Below are positions 2,557 to 61,098 of a DNA stretch of 64,000 bases, piece after piece. Both the position numbers and the translations under genes were made by a program. The first letter of the stretch is position 1. Each line of letters opens with the position of its first letter. Under the pieces are notes generated by a model, which was given only the letters and a program-made list of their open reading frames with translations, did not search any database and had not been told where the DNA came from. The DNA lies in IMG/VR virus record IMGVR_UViG_3300023296_001674; one strand, 5' to 3'. The DNA is from a virus.

Positions 2557-3096
2557 TTATCGCATTTGTTTATGAATCAGTGAACCACCGTTTGGCTTAC
2601 GCTTACACTTAGGGTGATATCGATTTTCTGCGTTTGCAAGTTTACGCTGTCTTGGTATCACTGTGCCACAATCTTTGCATGTATATGTATGCTTTGCGAC
2701 TTTCTTGCGTATTTCGTTAAGAATGGTAGATGAACCACATCGTTTAACGTTCGTTATTCCAAGATCAAACATTATTACACGCCATTCTCTACCATGTGCA
2801 GCAATCTTTCTGCCATTGATATAAGAACCAAATCGTTCTTTGACGAGTATGTGTGCTGTTTCATGTAGCAGTGTGTTAATAAAATCATCCATTTCTTCTG
2901 GTTTCACTGCACCATGCAAATAATATTCGCTGGTTACTTCGACCAGTTTCTTGGAATACTTACAGCAACCAAAGCGATTCTTTGCACGCCAATTGATTGC
3001 GAATTTCCATTGTTCTAATGCATCAAAATCATCACCAGCCGCGTTTCTAACACGATCTAATAAATCGAATTTTTCAAGATATGTAAGAAGTTTCAT
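2557..3096 (-). CDS. SprT-like zinc metallopeptidase-domain protein with C-terminal zinc ribbon
   Basis: LLHETAHILV (HExxH) ...HGREW; C-terminal CKDCG...HPKCK. Confidence 0.6.
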   Translation of the reverse strand: MKLLTYLEKFDLLDRVRNAAGDDFDALEQWKFAINWRAKNRFGCCKYSKKLVEVTSEYYLHGAVKPEEMDDFINTLLHETAHILVKERFGSYINGRKIAAHGREWRVIMFDLGITNVKRCGSSTILNEIRKKVAKHTYTCKDCGTVIPRQRKLANAENRYHPKCKRKPNGGSLIHKQMR

Positions 3097-3222
3097 GGTA
3101 GTTCCTTCCGTTTCAATAAGTGCATTAGATACTATAGTGTATATGATGTCAACACTTTATTTTCACTTGACACCATTGTGCAATCGTGTATAGTGATAAT
3201 CCAAACAACGAAAGGAACCGTT

Positions 3223-8550: not shown

Positions 8551-8958
8551 ATGTCGCGCACTTATCGTAAGCTTCCTTATTGGTCAAATGATCCAAAATT
8601 AACACGTGAGCGAGGCTCCAAATGGACTGGCATGCGTGTTTTTGTTGCTCCTAATGGAAATGTATTCGGTTGGGATGATGAAGCCCTACGTAAAAAATCA
8701 TCTAAACGTCGCACCAATCGCATTCGCCGTTTGATGGGCAAGAAAGAAATTGTTCTTGCCGTTGCTGCTATGGCAGAAGACGCAATGGAAGACCTCAACG
8801 AAATGATGGATTGGGAAGCCGAAGAGTATTGCGATACATATTACGACGAGTATGAATTGTCTGAATGGGCTGATTGGAAACAGCGTGAAATTGATGATCA
8901 AGCAATTGAAGAATATTATTTAAATGAAGACCCATATTATTACGATTTTGATTATTAA
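8551..8958 (+). CDS. hypothetical protein with acidic/aromatic C-terminus
   Basis: Track ORF trimmed; TTGACA-N18-TATAAT ~8494-8525; RBS aaaggag. Confidence 0.55.
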   Translation: MSRTYRKLPYWSNDPKLTRERGSKWTGMRVFVAPNGNVFGWDDEALRKKSSKRRTNRIRRLMGKKEIVLAVAAMAEDAMEDLNEMMDWEAEEYCDTYYDEYELSEWADWKQREIDDQAIEEYYLNEDPYYYDFDY

Positions 8959-9342: not shown

Positions 9343-9672
9343 ATGTCTAAAACAATTTCCCGCGTAGACTTCATTGAACTTATGGCAGATGCTGCAATGC
9401 GACTTCCAGTAACACGCAAGCGCAAGCCAGAGGATGACCCATCTGAATTCATCGACTTGTTTGATTATGATGCAATGTCAAACGAATGGTCGAAAGGTGT
9501 TCAGTGGCTTCGTGGCGTTGGTGATAGTGGCACTTATAAAGTTCCGACACCCGATGGAACATTCAAGCGCGTTCCAATGCGAACTATTGCTGAAATGCCA
9601 GCGTTCATTCAAGAGATTGTTACCGAGGCACAAACTCATTTGAATATCGATTCGATTGTCGAGATCGCTTAA
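9343..9672 (+). CDS. hypothetical protein
   Basis: ORF track; duplicated leader. Confidence 0.55.
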   Translation: MSKTISRVDFIELMADAAMRLPVTRKRKPEDDPSEFIDLFDYDAMSNEWSKGVQWLRGVGDSGTYKVPTPDGTFKRVPMRTIAEMPAFIQEIVTEAQTHLNIDSIVEIA

Positions 9673-12616: not shown

Positions 12617-13462
12617 ATGAAACTCATAGCGATTAATGCAGATATCACCACGTTGGAAGTTGATTGTATCGTAAATGCATCTAATCCAGCACTAATGCAT
12701 GGCGGTGGGGTATGCGGTGCAATATTTGAAGCCAGTGGCGCAAATGAACTTGCGGGATTTATTGCGCAGAACTATGGGCTAGGATGCTTAACAGGGCAAG
12801 TAGTTGTGACTCCGGGGTTCAACCTACCGGCGAAGTTCATCTTGCACACTGTCGGGCCTGATATGCGCCTATATGCACAAGAAGCGGGTGATACATTGTT
12901 GCAGTTATGTTATATCAACTGTATTGAGGCGGCATTCGATGAAGGGTTGACTTCTATTGCCTTCCCTGCTATCAGTACTGGAATCTTTGGATTTGATAAA
13001 AAACGTGCTGCTACGATTGCAGTTACTACATTGATGGACTACAGTGGTAGCGAAGATATCGAAATTACCTTTGCTTGCTTTGGCGATGAAGATACCGCAA
13101 TAGTTCAAGCCGCGATTGATGATGAAGATGCATCACGGCATTATCTATCATGGTCAATGTATAATGAACAATACGATATTGATTCGGCGGCTGGAAAGTG
13201 TGACATTGAAGGCGATTGGGAAGTGTTATACGCTGACTTATCTACGGATGTTCCTACTGGCATTTACATGGTATCAACAACCTATGATGGCAACCTCGGT
13301 GTAGCGAAAGGCGTTGTTATCAATGATGGTGTATTCGATATCGACCAAACCCTACGCGCTTGTGCGGTTGCCCGTAACAATGCAGGATATTGGGGAACTT
13401 TTCTTGAAGGATTGGATTGGAATAGCGAAACCGAAGAATTTACAGCACACTTCGGTTCTTAA
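12617..13462 (+). CDS. macro-domain (ADP-ribose-binding/processing) protein with unknown C-terminal domain
   Basis: VDCIVNASNPALMHGGGVCGAIFEASG macro signature; promoter TTGACA-N17-TTATAT ~12557-12586. Confidence 0.7.
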   Translation: MKLIAINADITTLEVDCIVNASNPALMHGGGVCGAIFEASGANELAGFIAQNYGLGCLTGQVVVTPGFNLPAKFILHTVGPDMRLYAQEAGDTLLQLCYINCIEAAFDEGLTSIAFPAISTGIFGFDKKRAATIAVTTLMDYSGSEDIEITFACFGDEDTAIVQAAIDDEDASRHYLSWSMYNEQYDIDSAAGKCDIEGDWEVLYADLSTDVPTGIYMVSTTYDGNLGVAKGVVINDGVFDIDQTLRACAVARNNAGYWGTFLEGLDWNSETEEFTAHFGS

Positions 13463-31556: not shown

Positions 31557-31672
31557 GATTTATATAATACCACAACAACCAAACATGTCAACAAAAAAGA
31601 TTCAATAATAACACTTGACTCCGTTTGGGTTGGGTGTATACTATCCATAGATTGAAACAAAGGATTAATCAA

Positions 31673-32593
31673 ATGGCAAAAGCAACCCGCACCAAAATCG
31701 ATCATGAGCAACAAATCACTAACGCTATTGTCGCCCACGTTGAAGGGTATATCGCCGCCGAGGCTACAGGCGAAGAGATCGCACGTTGGGAAAGCCCCTT
31801 CGGAAAATTCTTCCGTGAAGGCCATTTTTGCGCCGCAACCGATAACCAGTATAAAGGCTGGACTAACAATTTTTTCCTTACACTTATGGCGCACGCAAGC
31901 GGATTCAATTCCGATGCATGGGGAACATTCAAGCAATGGAAAAGCATGGGAACGGATGAAACACCCGTATCTGTTAAGCATGGTCAAAAAGGTTCCGCTT
32001 GGATTGCTTTTCCATATATCAACAAAGATAAAGTAACCGGCGACGACACCGTAACCGGATTCGGATATCGCGCCGTATTCAATGCCGATCAAATCGAAGG
32101 ATATACGCCCGAGGTTGTTGAACTACCAGAGTCGCAGGTTGTGCAACATGCCAAAGCTGAAACATTCTTGAAAAATCTGGACGTAACATTCCAGCATATC
32201 GGAAACCGCGCTTTCTATAGCCCTGCTAGTGATGCAATCAGCATGCCCCCAGAAGGCGCGTTTAAGGCGACTGAATACAGTACCGCAACCGAAGGCTACT
32301 ATGGCACCAAGTTTCATGAATACGCCCACGCAACCCTGCACGCTAGCCGGTGCAATCGCGAACAAGGCGCGGATAAAGCTTCATACGCTTTCGAAGAGTT
32401 GGTCGCCGAATTGACCTCGACTATCCTATGTTCGCGCTTTGGTATATCCGCACAACCACGCGAAGACCACGCTAAGTATATACATTCATGGTTGAAAGCA
32501 CTGAAAAGCGACAAGACCATGATTATGAAGGCAATGAAGAAAGCAAGCCAAGCAATCGCTTGGATGGATAAAAAGCAACCAACATCAAAATAA
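31673..32593 (+). CDS. ArdC-like protein (DUF1738-type ssDNA-binding N-domain + zincin HExxH metallopeptidase-like C-domain)
   Basis: ASGFNSDAWGTFKQWKSMG..KGSAWIAF ; FHEYAHATLH (HExxH); track ORF 31625 trimmed; promoter TTGACT..TATACT ~31615-31644. Confidence 0.5.
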   Translation: MAKATRTKIDHEQQITNAIVAHVEGYIAAEATGEEIARWESPFGKFFREGHFCAATDNQYKGWTNNFFLTLMAHASGFNSDAWGTFKQWKSMGTDETPVSVKHGQKGSAWIAFPYINKDKVTGDDTVTGFGYRAVFNADQIEGYTPEVVELPESQVVQHAKAETFLKNLDVTFQHIGNRAFYSPASDAISMPPEGAFKATEYSTATEGYYGTKFHEYAHATLHASRCNREQGADKASYAFEELVAELTSTILCSRFGISAQPREDHAKYIHSWLKALKSDKTMIMKAMKKASQAIAWMDKKQPTSK

Positions 32594-33323: not shown

Positions 33324-33755
33324 ATGAGAGCATCCGACTTCATCGCTGAAACACTTATATCTGTTTCGCACGGAACCAATACCGATTTTGATCAATTAGA
33401 TGTGGCAAAAACATCCGATGGTGGAATTCACTTTGGTTCCAATCAACAAGCAGCGTTACGATCAACTGGAAAAAATTCGCGCATCATCGATACACAAATT
33501 GATGTTAGAAAACCAAAACGTTGCAAAGACGATGGATCAGGATGGAAAAACAAAATAAAATCCGCCAAACGTTCTGGATATGACAGTATTGTATATTTGA
33601 ACCGTTATGAAAATATGACCACTGAACGAGTAGAACAGTTATCACAATCCGGCAAACTAGATACTTTGGATTCATTATCCGATGCCGCATTCAAAAAATT
33701 AGTTCCTGAAGCACAAGACAGTTATATTGTGTTCGACAACGATCAAATAAAATAG
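33324..33755 (+). CDS. hypothetical protein (N-terminus MRASD.. shared with next gene)
   Basis: ORF track. Confidence 0.5.
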   Translation: MRASDFIAETLISVSHGTNTDFDQLDVAKTSDGGIHFGSNQQAALRSTGKNSRIIDTQIDVRKPKRCKDDGSGWKNKIKSAKRSGYDSIVYLNRYENMTTERVEQLSQSGKLDTLDSLSDAAFKKLVPEAQDSYIVFDNDQIK

Positions 33756-40288: not shown

Positions 40289-40642
40289 ATGACTGAAAAA
40301 ATTATAAACGAGCATCCATTTAAAAAATATTGGCGTCCAGCAGCGGCTACGGTATATTTAATAATATGCATATTCGATTTTATAATAATGCCATCAATAA
40401 TAGAAATTTCTAACACTAAAATAACAAATCAGCAAGCAATAACGCTGGCGTTAAAATTTAATGATTCAGCATCACAAATGCAATCATTGAGTGTGTTTAT
40501 GGAAAAGCGAACATGGAACCCATTAACCCTTCTGGGTAGTGGGTTTTTTCACCTTAGTTTTGGTGCGTTGTTAACAGGTTCGGCTATCACACGTGGCTTA
40601 GAGAAGAAGCAGCACGCTAGCAATGGCAAAGTTATGAAATAA
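40289..40642 (+). CDS. membrane protein
   Basis: ORF track; TM segments. Confidence 0.5.
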   Translation: MTEKIINEHPFKKYWRPAAATVYLIICIFDFIIMPSIIEISNTKITNQQAITLALKFNDSASQMQSLSVFMEKRTWNPLTLLGSGFFHLSFGALLTGSAITRGLEKKQHASNGKVMK

Positions 40643-41120
40643 TAAGTTCTACGCTTACAAAACCTTCTGATTTTGTAGGTCGTTCGTATGTTTCTATCAT
40701 TTGGTTAACTATCTTGTCGCTAACACTTTTACCAGTTTCGTTCTGGCGCTTTTCAAGGCGGCGGAACAATTCGTCATAATCCAATTCGAATGCAACTGCC
40801 TTATGAACATACTTAGGGGTTTGCAACATCTTCTTACGACGAATTTTAATCGAAAGGTTAGTTTGATCCCAAATGATGTGTTTTTTTTTGTTGACAGCCT
40901 CGCGCAGAGCGATGTTGAACTTAGTCTTAGTTTTGAACGGCAACTTGTAGAATGCTTCAGAGTAGGTGATACCTTGCTCCGCAGCATACTTTTCAATGAA
41001 GACGTCGGTGCTAATAACGGTCCAATCGTTTGAATCGTTTTCCATGAACTGCTTAATCCAAGTTGATTTACCGGAACCTGGTGGTCCGATTAACATCATA
41101 ATTGTTGGTTTGTGTAACAT
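40632..41120 (-). CDS. P-loop polynucleotide-kinase-like protein (T4 Pnk kinase-domain-like; no phosphatase domain)
   Basis: IMMLIGPPGSGKSTWIKQF; VISTDVF; IIWDQTNLS; LEKRQNETG pattern parallels T4 Pnk N-domain. Confidence 0.55.
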   Translation of the reverse strand: MLHKPTIMMLIGPPGSGKSTWIKQFMENDSNDWTVISTDVFIEKYAAEQGITYSEAFYKLPFKTKTKFNIALREAVNKKKHIIWDQTNLSIKIRRKKMLQTPKYVHKAVAFELDYDELFRRLEKRQNETGKSVSDKIVNQMIETYERPTKSEGFVSVELIIS

Positions 41121-42655: not shown

Positions 42656-43045
42656 ATGAGTTTTAATAAAATCATCGACGATATTAAGATTAAGTATTTA
42701 ACGATGGACCCAAGCGTTGATCCAAAGAATAAAGAATCGCGCCGGAACTGGATATTATTCATGGCGAACAAGACACAACGGTTTCCTGTACGTCAGGTAT
42801 ATGATAGATTGATACCGTCTGTAACAAAGATGACAGTCAATACAGATATGAAATACCTTGAAGATCAAGGACTTATCAGGCGCGAGAAAGAAAGTGATGG
42901 AACATCGCATATCGTTCCATTGTTTGATGATTCAGGTGAAGCACCTGAACCAAAGCACGTCATATATAAAAGATGGGCGAAAAATGTAATATTACCACTT
43001 ATTGCCTTGACATTACTTGTCGTATTTGTTATTATCAGTGGTTGA
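42656..43045 (+). CDS. winged-helix-like protein with C-terminal transmembrane anchor
   Basis: VRQVYDRL..VTKMTVNTDMKYLEDQGLIRRE; C-terminal ILPLIALTLLVVFVIISG. Confidence 0.4.
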   Translation: MSFNKIIDDIKIKYLTMDPSVDPKNKESRRNWILFMANKTQRFPVRQVYDRLIPSVTKMTVNTDMKYLEDQGLIRREKESDGTSHIVPLFDDSGEAPEPKHVIYKRWAKNVILPLIALTLLVVFVIISG

Positions 43046-43065
43046 TATTAACGAGGAAAAAGAAT

Positions 43066-43803
43066 ATGTTATACAGTATAGGCGACGTTCATGGAAGATA
43101 TGATTTACTTAGATATCTTCATGAAAAAATAATGGAACATTCTAAACAATTTGATGAAGTGCATACAATAGTTATGTTGGGCGATTATATTGATCGTGGT
43201 CCAGATAGTAAACAAGTCATTGATTTTTTGATAACTGAACCATTTACAGATTTTAAGCATGTATATTTAAAAGGCAATCATGAAGATATGATGATAAAGT
43301 CATTATATAGTGATGAAGAAACCGTTATATATGATGTATACAAACAAGATATGTATAATGCTAGGAATATATTCTTAGGCAATGGTGGAACAACGACGTT
43401 AGAATCATTCGGGGTTGAATATATCAGACTAATGAATGATAAAGAATCCTTGGATCATGTATTTTTGCCATATTTGCCATTTTTCATGGGTTTAGAATAT
43501 TATTATGATGTTAATGGATATTATTTTGTTCATGCTGGCATTGTTCCTGGTGTTCCATTGGATCAGCAAGACCCTAACGCTGTGCTTTGGATACGTGATA
43601 GGTTTTTAAATAATACTGATGATCATGGCAGATTGATAATACACGGACACACGCCCACGACAACGCGTGGTATGGGTGCTCATCCAGAAGTTAAACCCAA
43701 CCGTATTAATATAGATACGTGTGCATATCGTACTGGAATTTTAACAGCGGTATGTCTCGACGAAGCGCATCTCCGAGTGCCAGAGTTTATTAGCACAGAA
43801 TAA
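43066..43803 (+). CDS. Ser/Thr protein phosphatase (lambda-PPase/calcineurin-like)
   Basis: GDVHGRYD, GDYIDRGPDS, GNHEDM, HGHTPT. Confidence 0.75.
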   Translation: MLYSIGDVHGRYDLLRYLHEKIMEHSKQFDEVHTIVMLGDYIDRGPDSKQVIDFLITEPFTDFKHVYLKGNHEDMMIKSLYSDEETVIYDVYKQDMYNARNIFLGNGGTTTLESFGVEYIRLMNDKESLDHVFLPYLPFFMGLEYYYDVNGYYFVHAGIVPGVPLDQQDPNAVLWIRDRFLNNTDDHGRLIIHGHTPTTTRGMGAHPEVKPNRINIDTCAYRTGILTAVCLDEAHLRVPEFISTE

Positions 43804-54902: not shown

Positions 54903-55565
54903 ATGAGTTTTAATAATAGACCAGATAGACCTATAGAATCATCCATTTACCTACGATTGGTAACTGAAGGCGAAATGAGAAAAAACACAATAAAATCATT
55001 TTACTCTACTGTTAAAGAAAACGCACCGGAAAATGTATTAAGTCATTACGATGTTCAAGACCCTGATGGAAATCCTGCTACAACGTTGTTATTACATCGC
55101 GTTAATGAAGACAATAAGCATGAATACGAAATACCATTGGTTAGAAACCTTACACCAGATGAAATATACGAAGTAGCATTAAATCTTAACACTAAATTAA
55201 ATGAAGGTGATTTTTTATTAGAATCGAGTTCATTTGACGATGATTGCTGCCTTACGGAAGATGATGATCCATCTGAATATATGGAAGCAGACGTTTTTGA
55301 ACGATTTGCAGAGAAATTATCTGAGCGCATGCATAATGTATGGTATAAAGAACGCGAAGATGCTGGCTGGAGATTTGGTACACAGCGCCTCGAAGAAGAA
55401 AAAACACACCCATTAATGAAACCATGGAATCAATTAACCGAAGAAGATAAACAAATAGACTATTCATTGCCTGAATTTTTTATTGATTTGTTAGAAGAAT
55501 TTGGGTATGCAGTTGTAAGTCATGATGAATTAGATGGATTTTCAGAAGAAATATCTAAAAAATAA
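54903..55565 (+). CDS. RyR (ryanodine-receptor) domain-containing protein
   Basis: AEKLSERMHNVWYKEREDAGWRFGTQRLEEEKTHPLMKPWNQLTEEDKQIDYSLPEFFIDLLEEFGY matches RyR domain (HN.W..ER...GW.YG...D...K.HP....Y..L.E..K..D). Confidence 0.65.
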   Translation: MSFNNRPDRPIESSIYLRLVTEGEMRKNTIKSFYSTVKENAPENVLSHYDVQDPDGNPATTLLLHRVNEDNKHEYEIPLVRNLTPDEIYEVALNLNTKLNEGDFLLESSSFDDDCCLTEDDDPSEYMEADVFERFAEKLSERMHNVWYKEREDAGWRFGTQRLEEEKTHPLMKPWNQLTEEDKQIDYSLPEFFIDLLEEFGYAVVSHDELDGFSEEISKK

Positions 55566-55627: not shown

Positions 55628-55882
55628 ATGGTAACTGAAAACTATCCCACTGTCCCATTAGCAAAGTTTGATGGTCGACCAATTGGGAAGGCTGGATATA
55701 AAGAACCGGTATTCAAAAGAAATATATTTCAAAATAGATTTATTGATGTGATTGTCACAGTCTATTCAGGCGAGATACAGCACCCAACATCGGGTCATGT
55801 ATTGGTTCCAGTTATGTTTGGCGAAATGAATGTCATACGATATTTAGATAAAACACAACTGGATTATACTATTGCTAATTGA
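55628..55882 (+). CDS. hypothetical protein
   Basis: ORF track; TTGCAT-N17-TATAAT ~55574-55602. Confidence 0.5.
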   Translation: MVTENYPTVPLAKFDGRPIGKAGYKEPVFKRNIFQNRFIDVIVTVYSGEIQHPTSGHVLVPVMFGEMNVIRYLDKTQLDYTIAN

Positions 55883-56657
55883 TCCACTTACCAAATATTC
55901 CAACGACGAACAAGATAAAATAATTGAGGTGGCAAAACGGCATCACGCTCATACGTATCATCGTGGAACTAACTTTGATTTATATAAAGAATATGATGCA
56001 CCATATTGGGGTGACGGCGAATGTGAACACGGGAGTTGTAAACATTGTAAATATAATACCATTGATGAAATACGTTCTAAAATGGTGTATGAAAATCATT
56101 ATGACGACAACGAAGAACGATGTTATGAATATTCAGATGGAGCATTTTATGAATGGTTTAACTCTATTATAACCAATGATGAAAAAATATGGATTGAAAA
56201 TATAGATAAACCATTTGAAAAAGCAATTGTTTTTTATGACAATGAGGAATATTGGGAGAAGATTTACGACGATTATGTCGATTTAACATTGCTGAAATGG
56301 TTAAATGATAAAAATATAACGTATCATATCATAAAAGGATTGCTTGACTTTTCTGTAAATCTGTATTATAAAAAAGAATCCATTTGGGATGATCATATAA
56401 GAGAATATAGACTTAGATTTGGTGACGCGACAACTATCGACTATATGTACGCAATATCACATTTAGGTTGGTATAGAATATCAATATATGATATGGCAAT
56501 AAATGATGATGATATCAATGATGCTATAGAATGGATAGATGAAAATCACACCGGTATTGTTCTTAAATATTCCAACGTTGATGGTTATAGTAGCAATGAT
56601 TATTTGTTTGAAAATGATGAAGATATAATGGGTTTAAAATTAAGATGGATGGAGTAA
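55872..56657 (+). CDS. hypothetical acidic protein with C-terminal ..DEDIMGLKLRWME motif (non-ATG start in track)
   Basis: ORF track (TTG); shares C-terminal motif with 41557 and 41835 products. Confidence 0.45.
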   Translation: MLIDPLTKYSNDEQDKIIEVAKRHHAHTYHRGTNFDLYKEYDAPYWGDGECEHGSCKHCKYNTIDEIRSKMVYENHYDDNEERCYEYSDGAFYEWFNSIITNDEKIWIENIDKPFEKAIVFYDNEEYWEKIYDDYVDLTLLKWLNDKNITYHIIKGLLDFSVNLYYKKESIWDDHIREYRLRFGDATTIDYMYAISHLGWYRISIYDMAINDDDINDAIEWIDENHTGIVLKYSNVDGYSSNDYLFENDEDIMGLKLRWME

Positions 56658-56661
56658 TAAA

Positions 56662-57513
56662 ATGTATAACACAAGAATAGCGCCATCACCAACGGGTGAT
56701 ATGCACCTTGGTACTGCTAGAACCGCTTATCATAATTTTTTGATGGCAAGGGCGTCCGGTGGAAAATTTATATTGCGCATCGACGATACTGATGCTGCAC
56801 GCAGTAAACAGTCGCACGTCGACGTCATCCTTGAAACTATGGATTGGTTGGGTTTAGACTACGACGAAATCGTTTATCAAAGTGATAGAAATGATCGTTA
56901 TATGGAAGTAATCAAACAGATGGATGCAGATGATCTTGTTTGCGAGTTAGACAATGGTGCATTTGGCACATTCATCGAAAGGGTTCCTGATGAATGGACA
57001 GATGAAATTGCTGGTGATATTATAGTGTCAGAGACCGATAGTGATATTAGTTCTAGTCTTATATTAATGAAAAGTGATGGAACTCCTACTTATCATTTTG
57101 CATCAGTAATAGATGATATGGATTTCAATATTAATTATATTATCAGAGGACACGATCATATATCTAATACACCAAAGCAACTCAATATTATGAACAACCT
57201 TGGTATGGTCATACCTAAGTTCGCACACGTGGGTCTTATTCACAAAGACGGTAAGAAATTATCTAAACGTGACGGCGCAGCAAGTATGTTGCACTATCGC
57301 GATCAAGGATATGACCCTGATGCAATGCTCAATTTTTTATTGAATCTTGGGTGGGCACCAACAAATCAAGGCAAGCAACATAAAATAATAGATCGTGATT
57401 TTGCTCTAGAGATTTTTATCAATGGTGGAAAATTGCGCAATCAATCAGCAAATATGGATTTAGCATTACTAGATTCATACAATAAAAAGTATAAGTATAT
57501 CAAGAGGAAATAA
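56662..57513 (+). CDS. class I aminoacyl-tRNA-synthetase paralogue: GluRS catalytic-domain only (GluQ-RS/YadB-like)
   Basis: IAPSPTGDMHLGTARTA (HIGH), RIDDTD, SDGTPTYHFASVIDDMDFNINYIIRGHDHISNTPKQ, DGKKLSKRDG (KMSKS); 283 aa, no anticodon-binding domain. Confidence 0.8.
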   Translation: MYNTRIAPSPTGDMHLGTARTAYHNFLMARASGGKFILRIDDTDAARSKQSHVDVILETMDWLGLDYDEIVYQSDRNDRYMEVIKQMDADDLVCELDNGAFGTFIERVPDEWTDEIAGDIIVSETDSDISSSLILMKSDGTPTYHFASVIDDMDFNINYIIRGHDHISNTPKQLNIMNNLGMVIPKFAHVGLIHKDGKKLSKRDGAASMLHYRDQGYDPDAMLNFLLNLGWAPTNQGKQHKIIDRDFALEIFINGGKLRNQSANMDLALLDSYNKKYKYIKRK

Positions 57514-57514
57514 A

Positions 57515-58351
57515 ATGAAGTACGATTTAGGTTCAGATTTACACGTAGATATTAATGCGGGTCGCATTGGTATGGTTAGATTTAAAGAAATGAAAAACGC
57601 AGGTAGTGATACTATAGTATTGGCAGGTGATATATCAAATGATCCAGAACTCACTGTTAAAGTATTAGCGATGGCGGCATCGGCATATGAAAATGTAATA
57701 TTTGTGGATGGAAATCACGAACATTATAGTAACGGAAAATATGGGTTAGACGTTTCTGGTGCTATGGGATTCTTCAAAGAAGCAATAGATTTAATACCAA
57801 ATGTCACATATTTATCTGGCGACAATAACGTTATTATTGACGACACGATGTTCGTTGGGGCTAATGCTTGGTATGATTTTAGAATGGCACCACCACAATA
57901 CACGCCTGAAAAATGCAAAGAAGCATGGGAAACAAGCCTAAATGATTTTAGATTATCTAATTTTGACGTAGAGCCAGAAGTATTGGCGGGTATTCAGTCT
58001 GCATTGATTGCGGATCAAGTATCCAAAGCGCAAGATAATGACGATGTTAAAAAAATAGTAGTTGTTACCCACACCGTGCCGAACACTAAAGGATTATTAG
58101 TTAAAAATAATCCATCGTGGGATATATTAAATGGCTGTTTTGGAAATTCAACGATGTCAAACGTATGGCAAGTTGATACAAATCGCAAAATTATTCACGC
58201 AGTTTGTGGACATACACATTATCCAAATGATTTTGTCGACAACGATGGTATAAGATTTGTAATAAATCCAAGAGGTTATCATGGTGCTGAAAACGAACTT
58301 GGTGATAGATGGTTTTTAGTTCAAATGGATACATCAGACGAACGTATATAA
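57515..58351 (+). CDS. metallophosphoesterase (calcineurin-like)
   Basis: GSDLHVD, LAGDISND, DGNHEHY, VVTHTVP, CGHTHYP; ATG overlaps upstream TAA. Confidence 0.7.
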   Translation: MKYDLGSDLHVDINAGRIGMVRFKEMKNAGSDTIVLAGDISNDPELTVKVLAMAASAYENVIFVDGNHEHYSNGKYGLDVSGAMGFFKEAIDLIPNVTYLSGDNNVIIDDTMFVGANAWYDFRMAPPQYTPEKCKEAWETSLNDFRLSNFDVEPEVLAGIQSALIADQVSKAQDNDDVKKIVVVTHTVPNTKGLLVKNNPSWDILNGCFGNSTMSNVWQVDTNRKIIHAVCGHTHYPNDFVDNDGIRFVINPRGYHGAENELGDRWFLVQMDTSDERI

Positions 58352-58426: not shown

Positions 58427-60076
58427 ATGACAAAATATTACATGGGTGTATCCGCTTATCATCACGATAGTGCTGCCGCGCTAATAGATGAACACGGAAA
58501 CATTATTTGCGTTAGCCAAGAAGAACGTAGAACACTTATAAAGAATGACAAATCGTGGCCTGAAGAAAGTATTAATTTTTGTTTACGTCATGCAAAATCG
58601 CAACAGTTAGATACATCCGATATCACTTATGGATTTTATGAAAAACCATGGATTAAATTTACACGTAGATTTTGTCAAAATCCTAAAGACACCGTTCGAT
58701 ATTTCAAAGAAGCATATAATACTACGAAAAAAATAAAAGGTTATAAAACCATAATGCATCACGATGCTCATGCATTGGCTGGATGTGCAACATCGCCATT
58801 TGATAATTGTGTATATTTAATAGTTGATGCAGTGGGTGAATGGGAGACGACAACTTGGGGAACATTTAATAAAATCGATGGTATAAAAAAAGAAGGGTCT
58901 ATTAGATATCCGCACAGTATAGGATTAATGTATTCATCATTTACGAGATGGTTGGGATTAAAACCAAACGAAGATGAATATATTGTAATGGGTGCGGCGG
59001 CTTTCGGTAAACCACGATTTGCTAATAAAATAAGAAAAGATTTTTTATCAGAAGTAACAGCATCGCCACATGGAATAGAATTTAAAAAAGGAGTTCATAA
59101 CGGTATAGAGCAATACTACGGCGACGAAGTTCCCGTAAAAGATTGGTATGATTGGTGTGCGAGCATCCAGTATGTATGCGAACAAATGATGATAGATTTG
59201 GTTAGAATGTTAGAGCAACAATACGGCAAAGGTCATAATTTGGTATTAGGCGGCGGTGTAGCACTTAATTGTGTGGCAAATTCTAAAATAATGAAATCAA
59301 CGCATGTGAAAGAATTATGGATATTACCAAGCCCCGGTGATAGTGGAAACGCGCTAGGGGCTGCTGCGCACGCCGCTGGCATCAATGATTTAGTTTGGGA
59401 TAGTCCTTACCTTGGAATGGACATGGATAACGACAGTAACCCAACACAGGAACTAATACGCAACGTTGTAGCAAGATTGGATAATGGTGAAATTATAGGT
59501 TGGATACAAGGCAAAGAAGAATTTGGTCCGCGCTCTTTGGGTCATCGTTCATTGCTTGCCGATCCAAGATCATCGAAAATTAAAAATAAAATAAATTTAA
59601 TAAAAAATCGACAAACATTTAGACCTTTCGCACCGTCTGTGTTAGAAGAAGAAACATATATGTATTTTGACTTACCAAATGGCACAACAAGTAGATACAT
59701 GCAATTTACAGCAAGAGTAAAAAATCCAAATATGTTACCTGCAATATGTCATATTGATGGAACCACCAGAGTTCAAACCGTACCTAAATCAACCGATCCA
59801 TTTAGACGATTGCTTGAGCATTGGAAAGAAACCACTGGTTGTGCAGCATTGTTGAACACCAGTCTTAATATCAAAGGTCAACCATTAATGAGTAATCGAA
59901 AAGATGCTATTCAAATGTTATTAGATACACCAATGGATGCATTGGTTATAGGCAATAGATTGTACTATAAAATAACAAAAGATGGATTAAGCGATGAACC
60001 CGGCGAAACGGTTCAAATAGCAGAATGTATAGATTACAGCCAAGGCGTTGATGACATGATTAAAGGTCGTTTCTAA
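58427..60076 (+). CDS. NodU/CmcH/TobZ-family carbamoyltransferase (Kae1-like + YrdC-like architecture expected)
   Basis: MTKYYMGVSAYHHDSAAALIDEHGNIICVSQEERRTLIKNDKSWPEE N-terminus typical of Carbam_trans_N; 549 aa; RBS aagagg. Confidence 0.7.
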   Translation: MTKYYMGVSAYHHDSAAALIDEHGNIICVSQEERRTLIKNDKSWPEESINFCLRHAKSQQLDTSDITYGFYEKPWIKFTRRFCQNPKDTVRYFKEAYNTTKKIKGYKTIMHHDAHALAGCATSPFDNCVYLIVDAVGEWETTTWGTFNKIDGIKKEGSIRYPHSIGLMYSSFTRWLGLKPNEDEYIVMGAAAFGKPRFANKIRKDFLSEVTASPHGIEFKKGVHNGIEQYYGDEVPVKDWYDWCASIQYVCEQMMIDLVRMLEQQYGKGHNLVLGGGVALNCVANSKIMKSTHVKELWILPSPGDSGNALGAAAHAAGINDLVWDSPYLGMDMDNDSNPTQELIRNVVARLDNGEIIGWIQGKEEFGPRSLGHRSLLADPRSSKIKNKINLIKNRQTFRPFAPSVLEEETYMYFDLPNGTTSRYMQFTARVKNPNMLPAICHIDGTTRVQTVPKSTDPFRRLLEHWKETTGCAALLNTSLNIKGQPLMSNRKDAIQMLLDTPMDALVIGNRLYYKITKDGLSDEPGETVQIAECIDYSQGVDDMIKGRF

Positions 60077-61098
60077 TGCACCCATATATGTTTGTTTTAA
60101 AACTTGCGACACTTAAAAAAATGGCTGATAAAAAAACGGTGTTGCGCGGTGCAGCGGTAGATGGATGCATCAATTTATTTGAAGGTTTTCAATTAGCGTT
60201 TGATAAAAAACGAGTATTTCATGTTAAAAGTGTGCCATTGATTGAAATAGATGAAACAATGTCACAAGATGAAATAACCGAAAATGGAACATACACTTGG
60301 GATATGTTTAAGGCGTTGGTTGGTTTATTAGAAAAAAATGATATTGATGAAGAAACGAAAAAAACGCTATTATATGAAGCGTGTGAACAATCGGGAATAT
60401 TAGAATGGAATGGATTCTATCGTCCCATACTCATGAAAAATATTAAATGTGGGGTAATGCCAAAAACAATAAACGCGATATTGGATGAATTCGGCGGAAC
60501 GGCATTGAAATATAAAATACCAATATGGAAAATACAACGAATACATCAAAATGGATTACATGTAGGTGAAAAATATGTAGAACCATTATTAGATGGCAAA
60601 CGAGCAATCACGATTGTAAATAAAGAATTAAAAATTGCTCAAATGTTTTCTGAAACTGGTGTATTAATAAAAACCCACAAAATAGATTTGGAACCATTGG
60701 CAGAATTGTCATATCAATTTCCAGCAAGTATGGTATTCGATGGTAATATAATCGATAGAAGTTATGGTGAACTTATGGATAAATCTGGAACCGATTCATA
60801 TTATGCGATATATGACATTATTCCGTTATCTGATTTTGAAAAAAGTTATTGCCCAATGGCGCTAACAGATCGAAAAAATACATTAAATGACCTTAACCTC
60901 ATTCTACGCGAAGAAACGAATGGGCAGATATATGTCCTACCGTCTTTACTGATGGATTTTTCTGCTGAAAATAAAGAAAAGAAACTAAAAGAAATTTCCG
61001 ATGAAATAAAAAATGCCGGATTTAAAGCATCAGTTGTCAAAGATAGCAAATCATTCTACACTTGTGCACGCGATTTATCATGGTTCAAAACACAATAA
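60076..61098 (+). CDS. hypothetical protein (340 aa); weak ligase/nucleotidyltransferase-like motif spacing
   Basis: LLDGKRA, VFDGNII, GFKASVVKD in ligase-like order but motif I lacks Lys; speculative. Confidence 0.45.
   Translation: MHPYMFVLKLATLKKMADKKTVLRGAAVDGCINLFEGFQLAFDKKRVFHVKSVPLIEIDETMSQDEITENGTYTWDMFKALVGLLEKNDIDEETKKTLLYEACEQSGILEWNGFYRPILMKNIKCGVMPKTINAILDEFGGTALKYKIPIWKIQRIHQNGLHVGEKYVEPLLDGKRAITIVNKELKIAQMFSETGVLIKTHKIDLEPLAELSYQFPASMVFDGNIIDRSYGELMDKSGTDSYYAIYDIIPLSDFEKSYCPMALTDRKNTLNDLNLILREETNGQIYVLPSLLMDFSAENKEKKLKEISDEIKNAGFKASVVKDSKSFYTCARDLSWFKTQ

Follow-up and report, generated by a model that had tools for sequence, protein, structure and literature searches.

The closest described relative of the gene reported here is the bacterial glutamyl-tRNA synthetase (GluRS, GltX), represented by structures from E. 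coli (8i9i), Stenotrophomonas (7k86) and Burkholderia (4g6z). The gene lies at positions 56662–57513 (+) of a 64,000-nucleotide stretch of the IMG/VR virus record IMGVR_UViG_3300023296_001674, hereafter the window. Its 283-residue product shares with bacterial GluRS the catalytic domain, the HIGH and KLSKR motifs and the stem-contact fold, with about 40–44% identity over 248 shared columns and TMq values of 0.86–0.87. It differs from these enzymes in that it has neither the anticodon-binding region (about 155 residues) nor the ~35-residue zinc insert, carries a Lys-rich tail and the residues D41, S148, G191 and G256, and belongs to a phage-only clade of its own. We conclude that the protein is a phage-only, doubly reduced GluRS that falls outside the GluQRS equivalog and fails two defining features of the gltX equivalog. 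Our proposal is that it may charge tRNA-Glu without reading the anticodon.

Loss of the zinc-binding domain (pZBD) is known from cellular enzymes: seven bacterial cases have been described, all presumed to be functional housekeeping enzymes (Chongdar et al. 2015, PMC4381286). In this group V of GluRS the pZBD is about 10–17 residues long and consists of the first and last beta strands only (PMC4381286). The phage protein shows the same deletion with the flanking strands left in place, and the group V enzyme of Methylacidiphilum fumariolicum (8jpv) gives the best geometric fit to its model, with a root-mean-square deviation (rmsd) of 2.2 A. In group V the deletion is compatible with tRNA-Glu charging. 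These enzymes are, however, full-length (about 440 aa) cellular housekeeping proteins with a normal anticodon-binding domain, whereas the phage protein is truncated at its C terminus as well. For the C-terminal loss the nearest counterpart is a laboratory-made, C-truncated E. coli GluRS, which the title of the cited work calls "specific for tRNA(Glu)" (Dubois et al. 2009, Biochemistry 48:6012, cited in PMC3927822). The construct is reportedly cut at the same domain boundary (about residue 313–315) and keeps the zinc domain; the phage protein is a natural form under selection, and its extra changes may compensate. By analogy with these cases, each loss taken alone appears to have a precedent compatible with tRNA-Glu charging. 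The C-truncated E. coli enzyme reportedly has strongly reduced activity, which is stimulated by the free C-terminal domain.

GluQRS (YadB; 1nzj, 4a91) is likewise a GluRS-core paralogue of about 300 aa without an anticodon-binding domain. It is an independent lineage, 27–30% identical to the phage protein, and it keeps the zinc motif, a KLSKQ loop and a divergent C-terminal domain. Bacterial GluQRS is linked to dksA, whereas the phage gene is linked to tRNA-Glu and not to tRNA-Asp. Huge phages are also cited as encoding full-length aminoacyl-tRNA synthetases (Al-Shayeb et al. 2020, cited in PMC12619734), represented in our sample by loci L071, L084 and L090 (L-numbers are labels of related loci). 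Those genes too lie on very large genomes with many tRNAs and translation factors, whereas the present family is a separate and uniformly truncated clade.

A GluRS core without anticodon-binding domains or zinc insert

The protein matches Pfam PF00749 (tRNA-synt_1c), the class I Glu/Gln synthetase catalytic domain, with 213.1 bits (E = 6e-63; cutoff 23.4). The sequence blocks APSPTGDMHLGTARTA, LRIDDTD, SDGTPTYHFASVIDD, RGHDHISNTPKQ and DGKKLSKRDG all occur in the 283-aa translation, in agreement with an initial annotation that had recognized the ORF as a phage-encoded GluRS paralogue from such blocks. An AlphaFold2 (AF2) model of the protein was obtained with a pLDDT of 93.5 and a pTM of 0.91. 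The protein consists of a Rossmann-fold catalytic domain, an acceptor-binding (CP) domain of reduced length and a stem-contact-fold domain. The features of the coding sequence are as follows.

56662–57513 (+): coding sequence of the minimal GluRS, an ATG open reading frame (ORF) of 283 aa; PF00749, 213 bits; TIGR00464, 272 bits
56704–56715 (+): HIGH signature, H15-L-G-T18; H15 and G17 invariant in 41 members
56776–56793 (+): RIDDTD block, residues 39–44; Asp41 family-wide, part of the viral sample having been retrieved with a pattern that requires Asp41
56947–56952 (+): junction of the zinc-domain deletion, L96/D97, placed by alignment A1
57256–57270 (+): KMSKS-type loop, K199-L-S-K-R203; S201 and K202 invariant in 41 members
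57484–57510 (+): Lys-rich C-terminal tail KKYKYIKRK, family-specific, ending at the boundary of the stem-contact and anticodon-binding domains

Across the 41 members compared, 47 positions are invariant, including the HIGH and KLSKR residues and the arginines of the glutamate pocket. H15 and G17 are shared with all GluRS and GluQRS compared, and every position with at least 90% conservation among the compared GluRS is also conserved in the phage family (R5, A7, P8, S9, H15, G17, R39, D42, T43, D44, R47, Q73, Y144, D151, D152, R162, H189, K199, S201, K202 and R203). Conservation extends to R5, A7, S9, Y144, R162, D165 and H166, which belong to the glutamate- and ATP-binding residues of such synthetases. 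The initial annotation had named absence of the ATP- and Glu-binding residues, or placement in another class I family, as results that would speak against it; the residues are present and the profile match is to the same class I family. The conservation of the catalytic residues argues for a working enzyme under selection and not for a remnant or decoy. At the level of sequence, this pattern fits an active enzyme and not a gene fragment.

Two parts of GluRS are missing. In alignment A1, E. coli GluRS has 35 extra residues at the L96/D97 junction, among them C98, C100, C125 and H127, and E. coli GluQRS carries a Cys motif of its own at the same 35-column gap. The interval corresponding to E. 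coli positions 92–150 is 21 residues long in the phage protein, compared with 59 in E. coli GluRS, and short beta strands persist at the junction in the AF2 model. The absence of the zinc-binding insertion, noted by eye in the initial annotation, is thus seen in the alignment. At the other end, the protein stops at about E. coli GluRS position 315, and the anticodon-binding domains (about 155 residues) are absent, as that annotation had also proposed. The Lys-rich tail at this end falls in helix 267–282 of the model and may take part in tRNA binding; in the 41 members its residues K276 and Y277 do not vary, and K278 is at least 90% conserved.

The family also carries substitutions of its own: Glu to Asp at position 41, Pro to Gly at position 191, Ser148 and Gly256. 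Asp41 stands where 85% of the compared full-length GluRS have Glu (RIEDTD). We considered Asp41 as a marker of a new substrate and rejected it, as Asp is also found in the full-length viral GluRS of L071, L084 and L090 and as the retrieval pattern behind part of the viral sample demanded it.

The family belongs with GluRS and not with GluQRS

The initial annotation had gone on to assign the protein to the GluQRS type, acting on queuosine of tRNA-Asp and not on a tRNA 3' end. This assignment is not supported by profiles, identity, structure, tree or signature residues. The best-scoring family is TIGR00464 (bacterial GluRS, gltX_bact) with 272.4 bits (E = 7e-81), a score below the 289.95 cutoff because about 200 of the 470 profile positions are absent. 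The GluQRS model TIGR03838 gives 166.9 bits against a cutoff of 276.7, and four other GluQRS models are also far under their cutoffs. The best sequence matches in the PDB are proteobacterial GluRS (about E = 1e-60), with YadB at 4e-23. Direct alignment to the two E. coli proteins, the check that the annotation had proposed, likewise favors GluRS (42% identity, compared with 29% for GluQRS). In a Foldseek search with the AF2 model, 38 GluRS chains (TMq 0.80–0.88) precede the GluQRS 4a91 (TMq 0.76); the best bacterial GluRS chains reach 0.85–0.88, and the lowest rmsd among the top matches is the 2.2 A of 8jpv, the naturally pZBD-deleted Methylacidiphilum GluRS.

We built a neighbor-joining (NJ) distance tree of 100 sequences (51 truncated viral proteins, 17 full-length viral GluRS, 30 cellular GluRS and two GluQRS) with 200 bootstraps. 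In 92% of the bootstraps all truncated viral proteins fall into a single clade, and in 1% they are sister to GluQRS, which argues that their truncation is independent of that of GluQRS. The signature residues agree with the tree: at the positions that set the two GluQRS sequences apart from GluRS, the state of the phage family is that of GluRS (KLSKR and not KLSKQ, with the terminal Arg being Gln in both GluQRS sequences; a Trp/Phe difference at E. coli positions 37 and 286; and the region of position 303, which is lost in GluQRS). The zinc motif CxCx11-28Yx3C is found in 46 of 61 GluQRS (PMC4381286) and is absent from the phage protein, in which the entire segment is deleted. Within the limits of a distance tree with two GluQRS sequences, we conclude that the phage proteins were truncated independently and do not branch from GluQRS.

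We count more than 100 family members. All lie on contigs from phages or metagenomes, and many of these contigs are 100–660 kb long. We searched 5.8 billion proteins and obtained thousands of matches at E<=1e-10. The best 120 of these are all 269–318 aa long, 53–72% identical to the query, and labelled at most generically as "glutamyl-tRNA synthetase". The relatives lie on contigs of up to 664 kb, on which T4-like genes for neck, sheath, gp15 and gp32 also occur. In IMG/VR we found at least 94 relatives, which fall into the window's group (A, 274–328 aa), a small intermediate group, and a more distant, still shorter group B (256–285 aa) that includes the 635-kb uncultured phage LR745206; a metagenome scan added at least eight further members. 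We also scanned 185,579 species of bacteria and archaea, each represented by one genome, with a sequence pattern. Nothing like the truncated family emerged, and the hits kept were all full-length GluRS of 411–735 aa with at most 42% identity and at most 208 bits. PHROGs holds no dedicated family, the best match there being a 493-position profile of unknown function, and no description of a truncated phage GluRS or a phage GluQRS was found in the literature searched. From these comparisons of sequence we conclude that the family is a previously undescribed, phage-only clade that derives from bacterial-type GluRS.

Full-length GluRS genes were found on the viral contigs of L039, L071, L084 and L090. 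That of L071 (9404–11317, 637 aa, on a 533-kb IMG/VR contig) has a deleted zinc domain and the RIDDTD block and keeps the anticodon-binding domain. Such a protein could represent a step between cellular GluRS and the truncated family; the NJ tree places it with the full-length viral GluRS, outside the truncated clade.

Neither a protein partner nor the missing domain was found in the surroundings. Clustering of 2,373 ORFs from 67 non-redundant viral loci revealed no conserved partner at a fixed position, and the most-shared neighbor cluster occurs in at most 5 of 26 loci. A hidden Markov model (HMM) of the GluRS C-terminal domain, run against a six-frame translation of the window and the flanks of 62 truncated-family loci in search of a separate anticodon-binding ORF, gave no match at E<=1.

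tRNA-Glu genes are enriched beside the gene in related phages

We examined the tRNA context in 42 non-redundant loci of the window's group. tRNA-Glu is the commonest tRNA beside the gene in these related phages. Within 1 kb it accounts for 15 of 36 tRNAs, compared with 6 of the 98 beyond 3 kb; Fisher's test gives p = 4e-6 when tandem tRNAs are counted as independent, and p = 0.009 at the level of loci. Co-oriented arrays of two to four tRNA-Glu genes (UUC and CUC) lie 4–700 nt upstream of the start in L015, L017, L018, L021 and L035. L032 has a single tRNA-Glu 88 nt downstream of the gene, and L179 has two tRNA-Gln 27 and 103 nt upstream. None of the 42 loci has a tRNA-Asp within 1 kb, so the association clearly points to tRNAs for Glu and Gln and not to tRNA-Asp, and the context, too, speaks against the GluQRS assignment. 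We regard the link to tRNA-Glu as moderate support for tRNA-Glu charging.

The D arm of tRNA-Glu carries major identity elements for GluRS. Several of the flanking tRNA-Glu genes retain the E. coli-type D arm (G10-U11-C12-U13 / G22-G23-A24-C25). Other array copies have atypical D arms (L021 8970–9142, L017 9924–9997, L015 9672–9743 and L016 7900–7971), for example GCAU/GUGC as compared with the canonical GUCU/GGAC, and these tRNAs might be poor substrates for the host GluRS. Two further tRNAs are unusual in other ways. L025 has, at 8634–8709 and 1.3 kb upstream of the mini-GluRS gene, a tRNA with a UUA anticodon (ochre-suppressor type), and L019 has, at 9533–9616 and 376 nt upstream, a tRNA whose anticodon loop is 8 nt long. 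Both are of a kind that a synthetase blind to the anticodon could in principle charge.

Protein genes for translation also occur near the gene. Within 10 kb, relatives encode EF-Tu, ribosome recycling factor, an L7/L12-like protein and a 452-aa MetRS-like protein (L257 1414–2610; L259 17652–18119 and 19951–20283; L260 15384–16742), and L035 has a transfer-messenger RNA (tmRNA) at 2704–3118. A protein of ~200 aa that matches the HisRS/class II catalytic core only (Pfam tRNA-synt_His / tRNA-synt_2b) is encoded at L259 11425–12033 and recurs within 10 kb of the mini-GluRS gene in L038/L040, L070, L016 and L015; it was not found in the window. This core may be a second kind of phage mini-synthetase. 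A different tRNA-synt_2b protein of 208 aa is encoded at L008 107–733. The EF-Tu, recycling factor, L12-like, MetRS-like and HisRS-like neighbors place the mini-GluRS of the relatives among translation functions.

Proposed function and alternatives

We lean, by a modest degree, towards the view that the protein is an active, anticodon-blind minimal GluRS that charges tRNA-Glu without the anticodon-binding domains and the zinc insert. In this proposal, its ancestor would be a bacterial-type GluRS that lost the C-terminal anticodon-binding domains as well as the zinc insert of the acceptor-binding domain. With its Rossmann-fold active site intact, the enzyme would bind ATP and L-glutamate and form Glu-AMP, probably only with tRNA bound, as in GluRS. 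tRNA-Glu would be docked by its acceptor stem and by its D arm and inner corner through the CP remnant, the stem-contact fold and the Lys-rich tail, with the anticodon left unread, and glutamate would be esterified to the 3'-terminal adenosine (A76). E. coli GluRS depends on the modification of U34. The phage enzyme would be part of the huge-phage translation toolkit and could serve the UUC and CUC isoacceptors alike, and possibly tRNA-Gln, whether encoded by phage or host and whatever the U34 modification.

A further-reaching version is that the mini-GluRS and the phage tRNA-Glu form a private charging system, a living counterpart of a primordial catalytic-core GluRS. Such a system would cover CUC isoacceptors and tRNA-Glu whose D arms are non-canonical, perhaps also suppressor tRNAs or tRNA-Gln, and could benefit the phage by freeing its supply of Glu-tRNA from host GluRS, from U34 thiolation and from host systems that target GltX or tRNA. 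We offer this version tentatively and think it doubtful.

Several observations weigh against charging of tRNA-Glu. When L015–L018 are collapsed to one lineage, four lineages remain and p rises to about 0.10. A permutation of tRNA labels within the flanks is not significant (p = 0.27), with the pool itself rich in tRNA-Glu; we replaced this permutation by the near-versus-far comparison because of that richness. In four loci examined later as a prospective test, none had a tRNA-Glu within 1 kb (0/4); it lay at 1.9 kb in one and 8.8 kb in another and was absent from two. The 64-kb window and the 10 kb beyond it contain no tRNA gene, and the link to tRNA-Glu is therefore drawn from relatives. The gene may simply be located in tRNA-rich translation islands. 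The changes to D41, G191, S148 and G256 could, as far as sequence tells, reflect a different acceptor. We found no precedent for both losses together in a proven GluRS, and loss of the anticodon-binding domain together with the pZBD could strongly lower the affinity for tRNA.

Other explanations have to be weighed against the same evidence. A GluQRS-like enzyme would activate glutamate independently of tRNA and esterify it to a nucleobase of the anticodon loop, queuosine-34 of tRNA-Asp or similar. It would have the same architecture, a catalytic core with a short C-terminal domain and no anticodon-binding domain, and GluQRS itself shows that such an architecture can retarget a GluRS core to the anticodon loop; moreover, tRNA-Asp is as frequent as tRNA-Glu in the flanks of group B (5 each). 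We nevertheless give this explanation little chance, given the TIGR03838 score (167 bits for a cutoff of 277), the lower identity to GluQRS (29%, compared with 42% for GluRS), the 1% bootstrap for sisterhood in a tree with two GluQRS sequences, the GluRS states kept where those two differ, the missing CxCx(n)Yx3C motif, and the lack of tRNA-Asp within 1 kb in the 42 group-A loci. It also seems unlikely that the enzyme ligates glutamate to something other than tRNA, for example to a modified DNA base, to the side chain of a protein or to a small molecule. The family has kept the stem-contact fold, a conserved module for tRNA binding, tRNA-Glu is enriched beside the gene, the relatives' neighbors are translation genes, and no protein neighbor is family-wide (no cluster is shared by more than 5 of the 26 loci, and none holds a fixed position). 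What such a ligase would account for is the loss of both losable tRNA-recognition modules, the substitutions D41, S148 and G191 at or near the amino-acid pocket, and, in the window and its closest relatives, a translationally coupled metallophosphoesterase gene with a carbamoyltransferase gene near it, either of which might encode a partner. Synthetase paralogues with analogous roles exist in MshC and PoxA/EpmA.

The protein could also bind without catalysis, as a decoy or sponge for tRNA-Glu or for a host factor that targets GluRS, such as a HipA-type kinase. HipA-type kinases phosphorylate the Ser of the GltX KLSKR loop, which is strictly conserved here as S201, and a small protein would suit a high-copy decoy. 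The full set of ATP- and Glu-binding residues is, however, invariant in more than 40 divergent members, which a pure decoy would not need, and the gene neighborhood shows nothing toxin- or defence-like; we consider a decoy quite improbable. Least probable, to the point that we give it hardly any weight, is that the gene is what remains of a host gltX that was captured and is decaying, or that it encodes half of a split GluRS with the anticodon-binding half encoded elsewhere. In its favor, full-length GluRS genes do occur on some viral contigs (L039, L071, L084 and L090), but the truncated proteins are monophyletic, consistent in length (274–328 aa) and conserved at the C terminus, with a confidently predicted compact fold, and the C-terminal-domain HMM found no other half in the window or the flanks of the 62 loci. 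Taken together, a truncated, zinc-less GluRS paralogue with an intact active site is the part of the initial annotation that we retain, and its GluQRS identity is the part that we give up.

Immediate locus and phage setting

The mini-GluRS ORF is tightly packed among co-directional genes. The features next to it are as follows.

55872–56657 (+): co-directional upstream ORF, 261 aa, whose stop lies 4 nt before the GluRS ATG
56650–56653 (+): GGAG Shine-Dalgarno sequence, 8 nt 5' of the ATG, read from the sequence
57515–58351 (+): metallophosphoesterase gene (Pfam Metallophos; phrog_1649), starting 1 nt after the GluRS stop

The 261-aa product has no Pfam or PHROG match; its ORF was found upstream in the closest relatives only (L002 and L003) and is not a conserved partner across the family. 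The ribosome-binding site of the metallophosphoesterase gene sits within the 3' end of the GluRS gene, and this adjacency is confined to close relatives. A 549-aa carbamoyltransferase of the NodU/CmcH type follows at 58427–60076 (+). The order of mini-GluRS, metallophosphoesterase and carbamoyltransferase genes is kept in a 69%-identical relative (L002, L003) and not in more distant members. The window has a second metallophosphoesterase paralogue at 42973–43803. Upstream, 54903–55565 (+) encodes a 220-aa protein with a ryanodine-receptor (RyR) domain (PF02026, E = 7e-16), found at the same position in L002. Downstream, the 340-aa product of 60076–61098 (+) matches a phage ATP-dependent DNA ligase (phrog_114, E = 1e-12). 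Its motif I, placed by eye, is apparently LLDGKR and not KxDGxR, and the adenylated Lys may be missing; the L002 homologue of this protein gives a weak Pfam ligase match.

The setting is that of a phage. By PHROGs, the window's neighboring genes encode tail-fibre-like and structural proteins, an ATP-dependent ligase homologue, a dsbA-like regulator, the metallophosphoesterase and a Nol-type carbamoyltransferase, and a Dam methylase and GIY-YIG endonucleases are among them. The gene is carried on a 570,549-bp metagenomic contig (ERZ27315719 k141_202852), which encodes a T4-type DNA polymerase B, ClpP, a 5'-3' exonuclease and a phage-type ligase. Position 12.6 kb of the window corresponds to ~28 kb of this contig and position 56.7 kb to ~554 kb, both in the same (reversed) orientation. 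The window thus spans the contig ends, which suggests a circular or terminally permuted huge-phage genome. Homologues of the mini-GluRS gene adjoin T4 gp13, gp15 and sheath genes, and others sit on IMG/VR viral contigs. Against GenBank phages, megablast with 8 kb around the gene gave no nucleotide match, and tblastn with the protein gave nothing above 43% identity, the hits being mostly bacterial contamination or huge-phage relatives of the shorter group. Elsewhere in the window, 31625–32593, 33324–33755, 12617–13462 and 40632–41120 (-) encode modules of the polyvalent-protein type (ArdC-N with MPTase, and an ART-PolyVal ADP-ribosyltransferase), a Macro-domain protein and a P-loop kinase like KTI12/PSTK, a tRNA-related kinase family.

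Implications

If the phage enzyme does charge tRNA-Glu, no smaller natural GluRS would be known, and both anticodon reading and the zinc domain would be dispensable in vivo. The idea of an ancestral GluRS consisting of the catalytic core only would then become testable with a natural protein, and an anticodon-independent pair of GluRS and tRNA would be useful for genetic-code engineering. If instead the acceptor is not tRNA-Glu, the GluRS core would have been re-purposed twice independently, in GluQRS and in this family. For the phages themselves, a mini-GluRS that charges tRNA-Glu would be a distinct addition to the huge-phage translation toolkit and, together with the HisRS-like core, would hint at a class of phage mini-synthetases.

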